DNA of 64,000 bases from a virus (taxonomy: Duplodnaviria; Caudoviricetes): IMG/VR virus record IMGVR_UViG_3300037067_003630, positions 6,495 through 70,494 of that record. One strand, given 5' to 3'. The notes beneath the pieces are model-generated. The model saw only the letters and a list, made by a program, of their open reading frames with translations. It did no database searches and was not told the origin of the DNA. Both the position numbers and the translations under genes were made by a program. The stretch's first letter is position 1. Each line of letters begins with the position of its first letter. Shown one piece after another: positions 29,925 to 36,542 of this stretch.

Positions 29925-30145
29925 CTAATACAAATCCTTTGAAAGCTGTTGGGCTTTAGCCTTGATTTCATCAATCTCAGCAAGTCCAGTGATTTCATCC
30001 AGCATATCGCTGATTCCGTCAACCCTATTTTCAATATCATCTATCATTGACTTAACATCAACCAGCAGCATAAACTCTGTTTCTTCCTCAATGTCGCTTT
30101 GTTCCGCCTCAACAGTGTGTCGATAATGTACTTTCTGTAATCCAT
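29925..30145 (-). pseudogene. Frameshifted paralog of 28362-28583
   Basis: MDYRKYIID in one frame and TVEAEQSDIEEE...KDLY* in another; 221 nt versus 222 nt for the intact paralog. Confidence 0.7.
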
Positions 30146-30159
30146 GGTAAAACCTCCCC

Positions 30160-30444
30160 TTATGCGTACATCTTGACCGGATGCCGCAGATTATAGTAAT
30201 AGATAGTCCTGCGCTTCGACCTGCTCAATTTGCTGAGCTTAGTTGCCTTCCTGCGGCGTTCAATTGCAGCCTTCCTGATTGAGTCCTTTGGATTACGGAT
30301 ACCTGGAATGATTTTGCAACCCTCAAACTTACTGGTATGAACCGGATTTGCATACCTGTTGAAACCTGCTGTCATTGCGAAGATTGCCGCAAGCAGACTT
30401 TTGCCCTGTTCGTGCCCTGATACGCCTACATTTGATTTGTCCAT
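30160..30444 (-). CDS. Basic hypothetical protein
   Basis: ORF with SD. Confidence 0.55.
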   Translation of the reverse strand: MDKSNVGVSGHEQGKSLLAAIFAMTAGFNRYANPVHTSKFEGCKIIPGIRNPKDSIRKAAIERRRKATKLSKLSRSKRRTIYYYNLRHPVKMYA

Positions 30445-30464
30445 AGACTTGACCCCTCCATTCC

Positions 30465-30680
30465 CTATATAACCTTCTTCCGTGGGTCAGTTTCCCACGG
30501 CTGAACTTTGCCTAGCTTCCAGCGTATTACATCAACGTAGTACTTTGCATCTTTCAAGCTTTTGTGCTTGACTTCCCTAACGAGTTTTATTGCCTTAATT
30601 GGTTCATTTTCAAGTACCAGGTCTTTGACTTTGCGCTTTAAACTAAGCAGTTTTATTTCTACAAAATTGAAAAATACCAT
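30465..30680 (-). CDS. Protein resembling the ribosomal protein L7/L12 C-terminal domain
   Basis: EPIKAIKLVREVKHKSLKDAKYYVD resembles the KIxAIKxVRE.TGLGLKEAK..VE signature. Confidence 0.5.
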   Translation of the reverse strand: MVFFNFVEIKLLSLKRKVKDLVLENEPIKAIKLVREVKHKSLKDAKYYVDVIRWKLGKVQPWETDPRKKVI

Positions 30681-30693
30681 CGACTTTCCCCTC

Positions 30694-30906
30694 CTATAAT
30701 TTAGTTTCATTGAGAATTTTGATTAACTGCGCTTGAATTCTGGCAATACAGAAGCTTAACTCCATAGGACTCATGCAACTAATTACGGTTTTAAGGTTGT
30801 TTTCTTCAAGTGCTACTAGTAAAAACTTTTCATAAATTTTCTGTTCTTCGCCAGGATCGTTAAAAATTACAATTACACTTGCAGATTCCATATCCTTGAC
30901 CTCCAT
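30694..30906 (-). CDS. Hypothetical protein
   Basis: ORF in early operon. Confidence 0.5.
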   Translation of the reverse strand: MEVKDMESASVIVIFNDPGEEQKIYEKFLLVALEENNLKTVISCMSPMELSFCIARIQAQLIKILNETKL

Positions 30907-30976
30907 TTCATTTAGTTTCGGAGAGGAAGCTACAGACTTACCTCTCCACTGTTTGATCGTGCTGCCCGGCTGATGG

Positions 30977-31225
30977 TTATACCTTTGCCTGTACGGTTTC
31001 TAGCGTGTCACCAATTTCTTTTACCTGGCTTCTTATACAAATTAGCCTTTCTCTTAAGTTTGCTGGCGGTTCTTTCTTGTCGCACGGCGGTTGAGGACTT
31101 GAACCGTACATTCTGTTATCAATGACATTAGCAAGACTGTTTACCTTGTCAAGTATGTCAATGATTTCCTGTGCTATGTCGTTTAATAATTCGATCGGTG
31201 CTACTGCACATTTTGCCTCGTTCAT
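30977..31225 (-). CDS. Hypothetical protein
   Basis: GGAGGT SD before ATG 31225. Confidence 0.6.
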   Translation of the reverse strand: MNEAKCAVAPIELLNDIAQEIIDILDKVNSLANVIDNRMYGSSPQPPCDKKEPPANLRERLICIRSQVKEIGDTLETVQAKV

Positions 31226-31263
31226 ACATTTACCTCCTTCCGTAAATTTTGCCTTTCGGCTTG

Positions 31264-31382
31264 TGGGAAAGGTGAGAGTCGAACTCACAATACCTGTTTC
31301 CCTTGGTCTAGCAAATACGCACAATCGTCATTGTGTAGTTTGCTATTCCGCACCAGTGCGTTACCAATTTCGCTACTTCCCC
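31264..31382 (-). ncRNA. tRNA-like RNA with a 38-nt hairpin inserted in the anticodon loop
   Basis: Acceptor GGGGAAG/CTTTCCC+A, D arm GCG-AAATTGGTAA-CGC, T arm GTGAG-TTCGACT-CTCAC. The anticodon region carries TAGCAAA..CACAAT-GACG-ATTGTG..TTTGCTA. No encoded CCA. Confidence 0.7.
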
Positions 31383-31397
31383 ATATTGGCGGATATT

Positions 31398-31718
31398 TCA
31401 GTCCGCCGTTTTTGTCATAATCGCAACATACATTTCCCCCGAAAGCACCTCTGTCCCTTGACAGTCTATTTCTATCCTGCAATGCGGGTTAAAGTTAGCC
31501 ATTAACCAATCCTGCAACGGTTTTGCCAGCGCTCCCAATTCGTCATATTTTTCCTGTCCCTTTGCTTCTTCGTTCCAGCATTTTTCACAATTATGTGGCG
31601 TATAAATATCTTTAGGTGTAGGGCATCGCACATTTGGAGGGCATTCTTCCAGCATAATTGCATCTTTAACCGGGACTTGTTTCGGATTATTTTGCAGATA
31701 TAACTCTATCCTTGTCAT
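31398..31718 (-). CDS. Hypothetical protein
   Basis: ORF from ATG 31718 lying between tRNA-like elements. Confidence 0.55.
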   Translation of the reverse strand: MTRIELYLQNNPKQVPVKDAIMLEECPPNVRCPTPKDIYTPHNCEKCWNEEAKGQEKYDELGALAKPLQDWLMANFNPHCRIEIDCQGTEVLSGEMYVAIMTKTAD

Positions 31719-31835
31719 TTTTGCACATCCTTTATTTTTTATTTGCCTTTCGGCTTGCCGGATACGCTCCGGCGGGCGGCATGTGCTCACCTGATTTATA
31801 CTCTCAGTCGGTACATGCTTCGTGTGTGGAGCTTG

Positions 31836-31869
31836 CGGGAAAGGTGAGGCTGGTTACTCACTCTCTCCC
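31836..31869 (-). ncRNA. tRNA minihelix-like element (acceptor stem plus T-arm-like hairpin only)
   Basis: GGGAGAG-A-GTGAG-TAACCAGC-CTCAC-CTTTCCC-G-CAAGC; the 3' half nearly duplicates that of 31264-31382. Confidence 0.5.
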
Positions 31870-31875
31870 ATATAG

Positions 31876-31975
31876 TGGACGGAGCAGGATTTGAACCTGC
31901 ACGATTGCCTACTCTTTCGTTCGGAACTTTCACCGGATTAAGATTCCGGCGCGGCTACCATTTCGCCATCCGTCC
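31876..31975 (-). tRNA. Atypical tRNA: anticodon CTT (Lys) on a Leu/Ser-type body with a long variable region
   Basis: Acceptor GGACGGA/TCCGTCC+A, D loop GCGAAATGGTAGCCGC, anticodon stem CCGGA-ATCTTAA-TCCGG, ~30-nt variable region, T arm GCAGG-TTCAAAT-CCTGC. No encoded CCA. Confidence 0.6.
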
Positions 31976-32014
31976 ATATTAGCGGGCATCCTCGCCCGCT
32001 TTGCTTAGTGCGAA

Positions 32015-32317
32015 CTATTTTGCAAGAAAATGGCCGTCTTTCACAACTTCAAAATTGCCCTTTTTAACATACATCAGCATGCCGTCTCCGCCTTCTTCCC
32101 ACCATTCCTTCACATCTTCAACAGTTTGCCATCCCTGAACCGGATCAGTCTTATCCATGTTAAAAAGCCCTTCGTAAAATCTCGGCTGGTCAGCATCCTT
32201 GCATCCGTATACAATCAAGTCACCTACGACACCGACACGTCCAACGATGTCGATATTCTTTAAGTAATCATATGTGTCGCCGCCCGTAACCCTTGCGAAT
32301 ACTATTTTATCTGCCAT
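32015..32317 (-). CDS. Hypothetical protein
   Basis: GGAGGG SD before ATG 32317. Confidence 0.6.
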   Translation of the reverse strand: MADKIVFARVTGGDTYDYLKNIDIVGRVGVVGDLIVYGCKDADQPRFYEGLFNMDKTDPVQGWQTVEDVKEWWEEGGDGMLMYVKKGNFEVVKDGHFLAK

Positions 32318-32593
32318 TAAAATCCCTCCACTCATTTACAAATTCATTTCAACTCTCTTTCCCCCGCCCCCATTTCCCTCACCTGCACCCATTTCGCAAC
32401 CCTCAGGCATTGCAGGAATATCTCCCGTGCATCTGCCAGCGTTGTCCGGGTGCGAAACGGCAGGCGGTTGGCGCGTATGTCTGCTGTTGCCATATCGAGG
32501 GCTGTTTTGGTTAGATTAGTCATTATGGGTGAGCCTCCAGTTTCCAAATTTCTGATTATGTGGTAAAATTGTGTCGAAAGGGGGTGAATATAT

Positions 32594-32755
32594 ATGCCTA
32601 AAAAATCGCCTTGGCACTCAATCAAGCAACCTGTACATCACGACAACACCAACTGCAACACCGGTAACAACATTGAAAAGGAAAACCTGAGACAAGGAAC
32701 CGGCGGAAAACCTCTCTGTCAAGAATGCGCAGGACTAGACAAACAAGGGAAATAG
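32594..32755 (+). CDS. Small His/Cys-containing protein (not in ORF track)
   Basis: MPKKSPWHSIKQPVHHDNTNCNTGNNIEKENLRQGTGGKPLCQECAGL; strong GGGGGTGA SD; antisense to the early operon. Confidence 0.7.
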   Translation: MPKKSPWHSIKQPVHHDNTNCNTGNNIEKENLRQGTGGKPLCQECAGLDKQGK

Positions 32756-33043
32756 TCATTTGCCAGGGTGGTAAAATGTCATTTCCCAATCGGGGCCGAC
32801 AGGCTCACCGTCGATGATGGGCCATATACGCCTGAGATTTGAGGGTTTTAAATCATTTTGCAACGCGATTGCAAGTGCTTTGAAGCCCTCGCTTCTTTCC
32901 CCGTGGAATCGTACAGTAGGTTCCGGATAACAATGTCCTGGTCCGCTCTCACATGATTCATAAGTTTCTATGCCTCCTTCAGCAAGAATCTCAACTTCGC
33001 GTTCAATACCTTTGTCCAATGGCGGCGAATATTCTTTCTTCAT
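32756..33043 (-). CDS. Hypothetical protein
   Basis: GGAGG SD; stop codon abuts that of the convergent small gene. Confidence 0.65.
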   Translation of the reverse strand: MKKEYSPPLDKGIEREVEILAEGGIETYESCESGPGHCYPEPTVRFHGERSEGFKALAIALQNDLKPSNLRRIWPIIDGEPVGPDWEMTFYHPGK

Positions 33044-33132
33044 GGTGTTTCCTCCTTTGCTTACTCCTTGACCTCGCCTATGTACTCATAAAACAATTTA
33101 GGCGATATGTGATATGTCTACACTGATATGGA

Positions 33133-33858
33133 TTAGGCCGATAATGCTTTTTGTCTATCCAGTACTTTCCTGATATAGTCAAGTCCCTTCTGGTAGACTA
33201 ACGTTTTAATACTGATGCAGGTTGTTCCGTCCGGCTTCGTGTACTTCTGTTCAACTACTCTGAAATAGCCACGGTCAACATATTCCTGATAAGGCTCGTT
33301 ATTATCTCTCAATATGCCTTCTGACCGGAGAATCCTGAATAATACATTCCTGCCCTTGCCATAGTTCAGTACTTTTGCAGCCTGTGACATTTCAATAGCA
33401 TCTTTACTGTTGGCTACTGCATCAAAGAATTCAGCTTTGGGCTTCATAAGGGCTATCACTTCATCTTTGGATTCAATGAGCTTCTGAGCTTCGATGAGTG
33501 CGGTTGCTATGAGTAGTTGTGGGGTCATTTTCTGATGAAAGTAATTTTCAACCAGCATTTCATAAACTTCCCACGCCTTGTCTGTATTGAGTGATTTGGC
33601 ATGAAGCAATGTGCCCTTTTCTGTCCAGAGCATGAATTTATTGATGTTTGGCGCAAGGTAGCAATTTGATACTTCGCCCTTAAAGGCTTGTAATTCCTCG
33701 CCCTCAAGAATGAAATAATGTATGCCTAGAATGTACCTATCCTGATTCCGCATAAAGTTCTGTCTTATGCGCTCGGTCTCGGTTTCGTAACCATCTGCCA
33801 GTTGCTGAGTAGTCAATACTCTCTGATTTTTGTGTTCGATTGGTACAAGACTGTTCAT
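33133..33858 (-). CDS. Phage antirepressor (ORF6N N-terminal plus ANT/KilAC C-terminal)
   Basis: QRVLTTQQLADGYET, LWTEKGTLLHAKSLNTDKAW, MKPKAEFFDAV and TLVYQKGLDYI motifs. Confidence 0.9.
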   Translation of the reverse strand: MNSLVPIEHKNQRVLTTQQLADGYETETERIRQNFMRNQDRYILGIHYFILEGEELQAFKGEVSNCYLAPNINKFMLWTEKGTLLHAKSLNTDKAWEVYEMLVENYFHQKMTPQLLIATALIEAQKLIESKDEVIALMKPKAEFFDAVANSKDAIEMSQAAKVLNYGKGRNVLFRILRSEGILRDNNEPYQEYVDRGYFRVVEQKYTKPDGTTCISIKTLVYQKGLDYIRKVLDRQKALSA

Positions 33859-33903
33859 AGCGTTCCTCGCTTCCTATCCTTGTAAAACTTTGATATACTC
33901 CCA

Positions 33904-34116
33904 TTGAAGGGAGGCGATTCCGTGGATCCTAATTTTTGTCCATTTGCCAACGCAATGTGTAGAAAAGATTGCGTATTGTACAAAGATATTATGGTTGCTG
34001 ACCCTTGCGGGAAAGCTTCGCATTGCTGGTTGTCTATTAAAATCAAGGATATTAATGAGTACCAGCATGATGATTTAACGCTAATTCTAAATACTATGAA
34101 GAGCAAAAAGCGTTAA
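33904..34116 (+). CDS. Small Cys-rich hypothetical protein
   Basis: FCPF...CRKDCVLY...HCW; on the opposite strand within the early operon. Confidence 0.5.
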   Translation: MKGGDSVDPNFCPFANAMCRKDCVLYKDIMVADPCGKASHCWLSIKIKDINEYQHDDLTLILNTMKSKKR

Positions 34117-34789: not shown

Positions 34790-34865
34790 TTAAGACTATC
34801 TTAATATTAATATAGATTATCCTTAAAGTCAAGGCGTTTTTAAAAATACTTATAGACAATCTATA
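34790..34865. promoter_or_regulatory. Lysis/lysogeny switch operators (three ~15-bp imperfect palindromes)
   Basis: TTAAGACTATCTTAA (34790), TATAGATTATCCTTA (34811) and TATAGACAATCTATA (34851) between divergent genes. Confidence 0.6.
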
Positions 34866-34889
34866 AAAATAAATATATAATAATGTAAA

Positions 34890-35264
34890 ATGGAGGTGGA
34901 TGAATTGAGTATAGGTGAAAGAATAAAGAGTATAAGAATGGGACAAAAAATTAAGCAAGGAGATGCGGCTGTCAAGATTGGAATTAAACAGGGAAGCCTT
35001 TCTGATATTGAAAGAGGAAAAGTTAATATAGTAACAGATAGGGTAATAAAAGATGTTTGCCGCGAATTTAATGTGAATGAAGAATGGCTTAGGACTGGCA
35101 TTGGAGAAGTGTATAACAGTTTCAATATTGACTTTGAAGAGTTCTTATTAACGAATGCTAGTCAACTTGACGAACTCGATAGAAAGATAATACAAGAGTA
35201 TATTAAATTAAAACCTAACCAAAGAAATGTTATTAAGGAATATATTAGCAAATTGACGATTTGA
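34890..35264 (+). CDS. XRE-family (CI-like) repressor
   Basis: IGERIKSIR...IKQGDAAVKIGIKQGSLSDIERGK...FNVNEEWLRTGIGE. Confidence 0.88.
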   Translation: MEVDELSIGERIKSIRMGQKIKQGDAAVKIGIKQGSLSDIERGKVNIVTDRVIKDVCREFNVNEEWLRTGIGEVYNSFNIDFEEFLLTNASQLDELDRKIIQEYIKLKPNQRNVIKEYISKLTI

Positions 35265-35274
35265 AGGTGACTAG

Positions 35275-36300
35275 ATGAAACTCCCGAACGGATATGGCAC
35301 CATATATCGATTACCCGGAAACCGCAGAAGGCCTTACATGACTCGCAAGACTATCGGCAAAACAGATACTGGAAAGCCGATTTATGAAACGATAGGGTAC
35401 TTTGAAGACAAGGAACTGGCGTTGAATGCGTTAGTAAAAAGTCACACAGAACCCATAATACCAAAAGCAGATATAACCCTAAAAGATTTATATGATGAAT
35501 GGTATCCCGATAAATATGAGTATATTTCAAAGCAAACAGAGGATTGCTATAGAGCTGCATGGAATCGCTTATCTGTATATGGCAAGGTCGAATTTAAAGA
35601 ACTAAGGACAGGTCACATTCAATCGGTCGTCAATAAGTGTCATAAGGAAGGCAAAAGCATTTCAACTATAAAAAATATTAAAATATTGGCTTCAATGCTT
35701 TACGATTATGCCCTGCAAAATGATGTGGTCAATAAAAATTATGCTGAATTTGTCAGACTTCCTAAAGTTGAAAAAGAAGAAAAAGAAATATTTACCGACT
35801 TAGAAATACAGAAACTAGAAAAGGCAGAGGGCGAACCATGGGTTGATACAATACTCATACTGATATATACAGGGTTGAGGATAAATGAACTTTTAAGTCT
35901 TACAAAATTCAGTATAAACTTTGAAAACCAAACAATAACCGGAGGACTTAAAACCGAAGCTGGTAAGAACAGGATAATACCCATACACCCAAAGATATTA
36001 AAATATATAAAAACATGGTATGACAAAAATGGTGAATATCTTATATGCAATGAAAAAGGCAAGCATTTGTCGGACAGGGTATACCGTGATACGCTTTACC
36101 TTCCGGCACTTGATGCCCATGGGGTGAGAAAACTTAATCCTCATAGTTGCCGTCATACCTGCGCCAGCTTATTGGCGAAAGCCGGAGCCGACACTCTATA
36201 TATTCAGAGGATACTCGGTCATGCTAAGTATTCTTTTACTGCCGACACTTATACTCGCACCGATATTGAGGAACTCAGGAAAGCCATTTTGAAAATTTGA
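35275..36300 (+). CDS. int: Tyrosine recombinase (phage integrase)
   Basis: MKLPNGYG arm-binding N-terminus; YTGLRINELL (R), K, HSCRH (HxxR), LGH and catalytic Y in TADTYT. Confidence 0.95.
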   Translation: MKLPNGYGTIYRLPGNRRRPYMTRKTIGKTDTGKPIYETIGYFEDKELALNALVKSHTEPIIPKADITLKDLYDEWYPDKYEYISKQTEDCYRAAWNRLSVYGKVEFKELRTGHIQSVVNKCHKEGKSISTIKNIKILASMLYDYALQNDVVNKNYAEFVRLPKVEKEEKEIFTDLEIQKLEKAEGEPWVDTILILIYTGLRINELLSLTKFSINFENQTITGGLKTEAGKNRIIPIHPKILKYIKTWYDKNGEYLICNEKGKHLSDRVYRDTLYLPALDAHGVRKLNPHSCRHTCASLLAKAGADTLYIQRILGHAKYSFTADTYTRTDIEELRKAILKI

Positions 36301-36314
36301 TGTTTGCATAAGGC

Positions 36315-36542
36315 TTGTTAGTAATTTGTTAGTAACGGAAACGATTTGCCATAGCTTACCGATACTTACTTATTGCCCATCTATTTTAATTAGATATTAA
36401 AAAGCCGCTCAATCCTTACAGACAAGCGGTTTTTCCTTGGTGAGCCATTGCGGATTCGAACCGCAGACACCTTGATTAAAAGTCAAGTGACGGATGGCTA
36501 TTTTAATGGAGTCAAAGGGTGCTTTGTTAGTTTTTTGTTAGT
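36315..36542. repeat. Integrase arm-type sites: TTGTTAGT tandem pairs flanking attP
   Basis: TTGTTAGT at 36315 and 36326, and at 36524 and 36535; 11-bp period on each side of the core. Confidence 0.65.
36438..36489 (-). other. attP core: 3' part of tRNA-Lys(UUU)
   Basis: Minus strand CACTTGA-CTTTTAA-TCAAG-GTGTC-TGCGG-TTCGAAT-CCGCA-ATGGCTC-ACCA. No D arm or 5' acceptor strand upstream; 138 bp after int. Confidence 0.88.

Follow-up and report, generated by a model that had tools for sequence, protein, structure and literature searches.

Between two small genes of a phage early operon lies a tRNA-like element (element B) that we tentatively read as a degenerate tRNA body, possibly kept as an intercistronic processing module for RNase P and RNase Z and not as a decoder. 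The window, by which we mean the whole 64-kb stretch of DNA that was analysed, is essentially a temperate phage, and the features that bear on this reading are collected in Table 1. The tRNA-like fold of B, the family to which it belongs, the conserved ends set against an unconserved interior, the spacing to the next start codon and the gain or loss of a cassette at repeats are all directly established.

Table 1. Coordinates of element B, its flanking parts and the other features of the window.
Feature	Position	Strand	Remarks
tRNA-like body B	31264..31382	(-)	119 nt; Rfam RF00005 45.1 bits; model R1 95.6 bits
Inserted hairpin in the anticodon loop of B	31309..31345	(-)	37 nt; found only in this phage
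A/U leader AAUAU	31383..31387	(-)	single-stranded, ends in U(-1), adjoins G+1
Upstream GC hairpin of B	31388..31407	(-)	GGCGGA-CUGAAAUA-UCCGCC, read from the sequence
CAA and GNRA hairpin GCC-GAAA-GGC	31251..31263	(-)	positions 74-76 are CAA, not CCA
A/U-rich spacer, SD AGGAGG (31238-31233) and 82-aa ORF	30977..31250	(-)	ATG at 31225
106-aa ORF	31398..31718	(-)	between GNRA hairpin 2 (31745-31754) and B
Acceptor/T-arm minihelix	31836..31869	(-)	GGGAGAG-A-GUGAG-loop-CUCAC-CUUUCCC-G; -18.3 kcal/mol, z = -3.7
Sister element A	31876..31975	(-)	Rfam 54.8 bits; missed by default ARAGORN
Antirepressor	33133-33858	(-)	early operon
Divergent promoter-like pair	near 34804-34881		
CI-like repressor	34890-35264		
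Integrase	35275-36300		

The match of B to the Rfam tRNA model RF00005 covers exactly 31264-31382 (E 2e-6, model positions 1-71, gathering score 29), and the alignment places 57 nt where the model expects 11, at the place of the anticodon arm. The acceptor stem has 7 bp (GGGGAAG at 31382-31376 with CUUUCCC, including a G4-U69 wobble) and is followed by discriminator A; U8 is present, the D arm GCG-AAAUUGGUAA-CGC is Leu-like with the elbow GG kept, and the T arm GUGAG-UUCGACU-CUCAC has the canonical T loop UUCGACU with a 14-nt variable stretch before it. After the D arm, the 5' to 3' order is CUGGU, GCGGAA, the inserted hairpin, a single G, ACCAA and the variable stretch, with 44 nt separating CUGGU from ACCAA. 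The insert reads UAGCAAA-CUA-CACAAU-GACG-AUUGUG-CGUA-UUUGCUA (31345-31309), with helices of 7 bp and 6 bp on either side of a 3x4 internal loop and a GACG loop at the tip, and the 57-nt interior folds at -15.5 kcal/mol (z = -3.96), which none of 200 shuffles equals. The original prediction had described a tRNA scaffold with intact acceptor, D and T arms and an interrupted anticodon loop, and every segment it listed was found in place; the 38 nt it gave for the insert are 37 by our count. It was also right that removing the hairpin leaves a non-canonical loop (GCGGAAG, with C at 33), and no 7-nt anticodon loop with U33 is present in B. Its expectation of a pseudo or absent call by ARAGORN was borne out as well, since the program at default settings calls no tRNA anywhere in the 64-kb window.

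Element B sits in a long minus-strand early operon that also encodes Gam, Erf and a DnaD-like loader, and it has the same direction as the 106-aa and 82-aa ORFs that flank it. No promoter-like site was found directly upstream of B. The 106-aa ORF ends 15 nt 5' of B, its stop codon TGA (31400-31398) lying inside the loop of the GC hairpin, and the start codon of the 82-aa ORF follows 38 nt past the B discriminator. Among 5.8 billion proteins, the 106-aa ORF matches only the window's own protein. A 16-mer of the 3' flank of B is repeated exactly at 31742-31757, and three matches with at most two mismatches (two of them exact) were found versus 0.09 expected. The GC hairpin of B, when read on the plus strand (31387-31408), runs into TTTTTG and scores as an intrinsic terminator, which might stop antisense transcription into the early operon; the upstream hairpins of the other family members, described below, have no consistent plus-strand terminator signature.

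B is one of three tRNA-like units in the window, the others being element A and a bare minihelix about 500 nt upstream, and all three lie between small early-operon ORFs. Element A has the loop AUCUUAA, a 29-nt variable region and its own upstream GC hairpin with UAAUAU (31976-31999). The minihelix comes 6 nt after A, and its 3' half repeats that of B. Two mutually exclusive helices can form in the anticodon region of A, CCGGA/UCCGG (with loop AUCUUAA) versus CGGAA/UUCCG; ARAGORN with the -i option uses the second and calls Phe-GAA, and the CUUAA of A is 2 nt off its place in the tRNA-Leu(UAA) of the MAG. A structured stretch of about 75 nt (31757-31830, minus strand) with no Rfam family match separates the minihelix from GNRA hairpin 2. 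This stretch has 77-95% tblastx identity to the syntenic L188:7032-7110, where its position relative to the tRNA-like element differs, and nowhere else in the compared region is metagenome depth as high (up to 245 at 31758-31789 versus 12.5). The 306-nt region 31700-32005 folds with z = -5.3.

Adjoining the integrase is a D-arm-less tRNA-Lys(UUU) (36441-36500, minus strand, Rfam 29.5 bits), a fragment that is probably attP. A search for the corresponding attB found no MAG tRNA with its 3' part, and the only match, of 24 nt, was on C133, a phage-like contig. It is possible that the contig of the window is a mis-binned free phage genome and that the MAG is not its host; statements on the "host" are tentative because this attP-like tRNA-Lys has no matching MAG tRNA. 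The tRNA set of the MAG is normal and includes Ser-GCU, Lys-CUU and five Leu.

Comparison with other loci placed B in a small family of related elements with seven strict members (B, C77, L073, which equals L134, L131, L176, L188 and L205) and three looser relatives (L175, L184 and L189). Members besides B come from the same MAG, from viral contigs and from a metagenome contig; C77 was recognised by both flanks, which it has in common with B, and further members were found by pattern scans. The strict members are built in one order: a GC hairpin that differs in sequence, an A/U leader ending in U, an acceptor stem GGGRARG/CUUYYCC with A73, a 5-bp T stem, CAA, CUA or CCA at positions 74-76, a GCC-GNRA-GGC hairpin (loop GAAA or GCAA in the members other than B), an A/U-rich spacer, a strong SD and a start codon 35-41 nt past the discriminator (7/7). 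Their leaders are AAUAU, UAUAU, AAAAU or AACAU with U(-1) invariant, and leader and 5' acceptor together have a mean identity of 0.89. The ORFs downstream of the members are mutually unrelated.

The paired parts of these ends covary. T stems occur, for example, as GUGAG/CUCAC, GCGGG/CCCGC, GUUGG/CCAAC and GUCGG/CCGGC, and across nine sequences 98.5% of acceptor, T-stem and GNRA-stem cells are paired, with 8 of 15 pairs changing on both sides, a count made on a model-fitted alignment that leans towards structure. None of 500 shuffles reaches these values, and slid registers are 43-64% paired. The interiors, in contrast to the ends, are no more alike than shuffled sequence (identity 0.48 versus 0.47) and range in length from 33 to 87 nt, that of B being the longest. 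The original prediction was to fall if homologs had the insert unconserved, and for the insert itself this is what we found. The syntenic phage L188 has the same downstream ORF start and flanks as B around an unrelated interior, and in L073, L184 and L205 the consensus of the D arm or T loop is gone but the ends are kept. Most full-size members nevertheless retain D-arm-like and anticodon-arm-like hairpins despite unalignable sequence, and there are hints that the whole L-shape is under selection, beyond what the cut sites would need.

Several further observations concern the interiors and other odd tRNA-like elements. L131, L176, L188 and, provided that its closing A-U pair is open, A have 9-nt anticodon-like loops with no common sequence and no U33/R37. 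The MAG holds two more odd tRNA-like elements, on contigs C77 and C24; the latter (C24:7161-7266, minus strand, the same as L144:3162-3267) is 106 nt long with an Rfam score of 42.4 bits, three interior hairpins, an acceptor GCGGAAG/CUUCCGC, discriminator C and other flanks, on a contig without similarity to the window. Elsewhere, tRNA-like elements with large inserts occur at L219:1570-1683, L214:845-947, L220:2243-2368 and L198:13427-13544, on phage contigs of 55-376 kb (three of them >170 kb); L219 has about 37 nt within the D loop of an Ala-type body, and L198 has the hairpin GGUGG-UGAAAA-CCACC within the anticodon loop.

Searches beyond this family returned little. By blastn, the region 31200-32100 had no match in 50,697 phage records, and B matched only the 5' third of ordinary 84-nt class II tRNAs in 61 related genomes. 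Covariance model R1, run over 35 family genomes, scored above 90 bits only for the MAG's own copies, with ordinary tRNAs at 28-44 bits, and two pattern scans of the genome contigs returned nothing. The 16-mer CAAGCCGAAAGGCAAA alone proved too unspecific for searching, giving about 100 chance matches for one real one. No relatives of the ORFs flanking B were found among the viral contigs. Neither the MAG nor any of about 220 retrieved loci has a second copy of the insert or a sequence like it, and the idea of a mobile insert was dropped for that reason. The interiors of A and B have no complementarity of 12 nt or more to the window; an antisense target in the phage was rejected, as the longest shared words of 10-11 nt are by estimate at chance level for 64 kb.

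Environmental DNA separated the fate of the ends from that of the middle. Contigs of groundwater and landfill DNA runs (X1, X2) were compared over 31150-32100. The insert and the 106-aa ORF are covered at baseline depth (12.5 in X1, 5.5 in X2). Coverage climbs to 60-130, from a baseline of 12.5, in two places: the 5' third of B together with its hairpin, and the 3' third together with the GNRA hairpin and leader. The contigs that have these ends in common with B are 5-20 times as deep as this phage. In these two data sets, the ends of B are common to many other contigs and the insert is not; the loose ends there are other interiors, that of C77 included, joined to the ends of B. An abundant form joins 31237 directly to 31756 (depth 99 in X1 and 32 in X2) and is without the 518 nt in which the 106-aa ORF and B lie, with the break in two GCCGAAAGGC repeats. 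Because abundant relatives are without both and the junction falls in the GCCGAAAGGC repeats, this indicates that the 106-aa ORF and B behave together as a cassette that is gained or lost.

We propose the following route for how the conserved parts might be used. The early transcript would probably start at the promoter-like site 34832-34804 and cover a series of small ORFs with modules in between. Cleavage by host RNase P would fall between U(-1) and G+1 (31383/31382), leaving the GC hairpin at the end of the upstream mRNA as a possible 3' protector. On the other side, RNase Z or another enzyme with equivalent 3' endonuclease activity would be expected to cut directly behind the discriminator A (A73, 31264), since positions 74-76 are CAA and not CCA. 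The next mRNA would begin 3 nt before the GNRA hairpin, with a fixed leader of about 38 nt and a strong SD. The anticodon region would be dispensable for both cuts and, because it is not needed for them, could drift and accept insertions such as the 37-nt hairpin, which is probably a tolerated insertion and not functional. Transcription through B, both cleavages and a stabilising role of the hairpins are what we infer here.

Selection acts on the top half (in most members also on the D/T elbow), on U(-1), the free leader and A73, and on sequence just outside the predicted cuts. These are the parts that RNase P, RNase Z and the CCA-adding enzyme read, together with both flanks, which is why we read the module as putative punctuation of early mRNA. 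In support, the bare minihelix, which has the minimal shape of an RNase P substrate, lies in the same array as B, and the module has U(-1), A73 and, between its upstream hairpin and the acceptor, at least 5 nt of unpaired leader. According to a review (PMC10731613), mRNAs are also among the targets of RNase P, and cleavage is inhibited by a stem-loop that lies too near the site; the free leader of 5 nt or more fits the latter point. The MAG has a type A RNase P RNA (203.6 bits), RNase E/G and RNase Y; a gene resembling RNase Z scores below the curated cut-off. A search of the MAG for RNase J was negative, and an initial idea of protection against this enzyme was weakened to one of generic 5'-end protection. 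As counterpoints, the GNRA hairpin of only 3 bp would be a weak protector, and the conserved ends could be kept alike by frequent recombination and not by RNA function.

A somewhat unlikely alternative is that the released tRNA-shaped RNA is itself the product, a stable CCA-tailed mimic that would act as a decoy for a factor reading the top half or the L-shape (toxins of the 3'-CCA or acceptor, a synthetase, EF-Tu) or as a scaffold for the 37-nt hairpin. Most members do keep the cloverleaf topology despite their unalignable interiors, and the insert is a markedly stable hairpin for its composition by the z-score given above. A Leu-like D arm with GG and A73, which suffice for bacterial LeuRS, is found in B, A and C77, though not family-wide, and the AlaRS determinant of G3-U70 with A73 is found in 4 of 9 members, B having its wobble at 4-69 instead; some copies might be chargeable, but neither G3-U70 nor the Leu-like D arm is conserved. 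We also counted in favour of such a mimic the selection of tRNAs by their acceptor stem that is described for a toxSAS in a preprint (bioRxiv 10.1101/2024.07.05.602228). Yet nothing is conserved beyond the top half, the minihelix and the D-arm-less members cannot form an L-shape, and the insert is without relatives and without a complementary phage target. A free-standing decoy also leaves the fixed link to the leader of the next gene unexplained.

These data refine what the original prediction had proposed in the way of function. Its non-decoding mimic agrees with the lack of a canonical anticodon loop, and its specific decoy guesses do not fare as well. Anticodon nucleases, synthetases and T-box sensors as targets are unsupported, because such a decoy should conserve the anticodon region, which in this family is unconserved. 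RNase P, one item on the same list, fits: what the family conserves is the 5' leader, the acceptor and T arms and, on the 3' side, the leader of the following gene, a pattern that points to an enzyme reading the top half of a tRNA (RNase P, RNase Z or the CCA-adding enzyme). A scaffold presenting a hairpin, also proposed there, is a candidate role.

It is decidedly unlikely, in our estimate, that B is a decaying phage tRNA gene or a recombination linker without RNA-level function, its ends being alike through homologous recombination at short shared sequences. Recombination is clearly at work in this region: in abundant relatives, the cassette is lost precisely from one GCCGAAAGGC repeat to the other, L188 has its modules in another order than the window, the phage encodes the recombination proteins Erf and Gam, and the interior looks neutral. 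However, the acceptor and T stems covary at nearly complete pairing across three different T-stem sequences, the upstream hairpins differ in sequence and are all still hairpins, and the distance to the start codon varies by no more than 6 nt. Neutral decay would not predict covarying stems or kept hairpins, and neither would homogenisation of the sequence alone.

Decoding after removal of an intron is very improbable. In intron mode, ARAGORN -i does read B as a tRNA-Ser(GCU), taking out 37 nt between positions 31 and 32 and joining 31352 to 31314; two genes for the RtcB ligase are present in the MAG, and short "enigmatic" introns have been reported for tRNAs of Lak megaphages (Devoto et al. 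2019, PMC6784885). However, the 3' splice site of this reading would lie inside the 7-bp helix, and in place of a bulge-helix-bulge there is a 6-nt/1-nt asymmetric bulge followed by that helix. The spliced tRNA would carry A73 and a C27-A43 mismatch and have no variable-arm stem, so that SerRS identity elements would be lacking. For the sister elements, ARAGORN places "introns" at 33/34 and 37/38 and reads unrelated anticodons. No match to the splicing endonuclease PF01974 was found in the MAG (89.6% complete, host assignment uncertain), with archaeal controls positive in 4 of 4, and none was found among about 30 scanned phage ORFs; the MAG, moreover, already has a normal tRNA-Ser(GCU).

Known RNA classes and motifs were rejected as follows. 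As the original prediction had held, the insert is far too short for a group I intron (37-44 nt versus a core of at least 200 nt), with no Rfam intron family match and no Intron_gpI match at E<=1 in 30000-34000. A tmRNA or Y RNA (YrlA) was discarded, as the Rfam matches are to tRNA only and the ends of B pair as the acceptor stem itself, unlike the Ro-binding stem of YrlA. Judged by motif alone, the internal loop of the insert is without the tandem G-A pairs of a K-turn, and the GNRA hairpin resembles a small boxB yet is always fused to the 3' end of the tRNA-like body.

Punctuation by RNase P and RNase Z could be taken one step further, in a speculative form to which we attach little weight. 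The hollowed tRNA body, the 3'-protecting hairpin and the GNRA leader of about 38 nt would then make up a portable cassette that says "cut here" and supplies a ready-made leader, moving with single ORFs by recombination so that each early gene would sit on its own processed mRNA. In some copies, B among them, the anticodon position might have been given over to a structured RNA, here the 37-nt hairpin, that has its own function, which would make B a natural tRNA scaffold.

We know of no description of tRNA punctuation of phage early operons, and tRNA-like punctuation between phage genes was not found in print. B itself has a tRNA body of full size that is hollowed out and joined on its downstream side to a fixed leader. 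If the modules are cut as proposed, bacterial viruses punctuate polycistronic messages with tRNAs, as happens in mitochondria and in engineered tRNA-gRNA arrays. Such cutting would also explain many "pseudo-tRNA" or missed tRNA-like calls in phage genomes, give annotators a signature of hairpin, A/U leader, top half and GNRA-hairpin leader, and supply a small, naturally occurring element with which genes could be separated in the transcript.

Several known systems resemble B in part. The C4 antisense RNA of P1 and P7 and the CI RNA of P4 are phage RNAs in or near immunity or early regions that are freed from longer transcripts by host RNase P via tRNA-like features, and they act by antisense pairing; in contrast, no antisense target for the insert of B was found in the window, and the window has no Rfam match to those families. 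The stable tRNA-like RNAs of T4 and T5 are freed in the same way but lie in tRNA clusters and not between ORFs with a fixed downstream leader. Engineered tRNA scaffolds and tRNA-gRNA arrays have a foreign hairpin in place of the anticodon region, and host RNase P and RNase Z free it and separate adjoining units; these are man-made, whereas B is a candidate natural counterpart. The tRNAs of Lak megaphages, like B, have a short insert in or near the anticodon loop that is too small for group I and is missed by finders in bacterial mode, but their inserts are reported to be identical across cohorts and to leave a recognisable anticodon (PMC6784885), whereas B has a unique insert, a non-canonical loop and an interior unlike those of its sisters.

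The closest comparison is with the t-elements of plant mitochondria, non-decoding tRNA-like structures that adjoin coding genes and are thought to set the 5' and 3' ends of mRNAs via RNase P and RNase Z (Forner et al. 2007, PMC1920247). B and the t-elements are unrelated in sequence. The t-elements are organellar with mapped cleavage, whereas B belongs to a phage of bacteria with cleavage sites that are predicted only. No flanking GC hairpin or GNRA-leader module is described for t-elements, whereas the B family has both. Like a t-element, the acceptor/T-arm mimic B is intergenic and on the coding strand, and in t-elements it is likewise the top half that matters and the rest that is degenerate.
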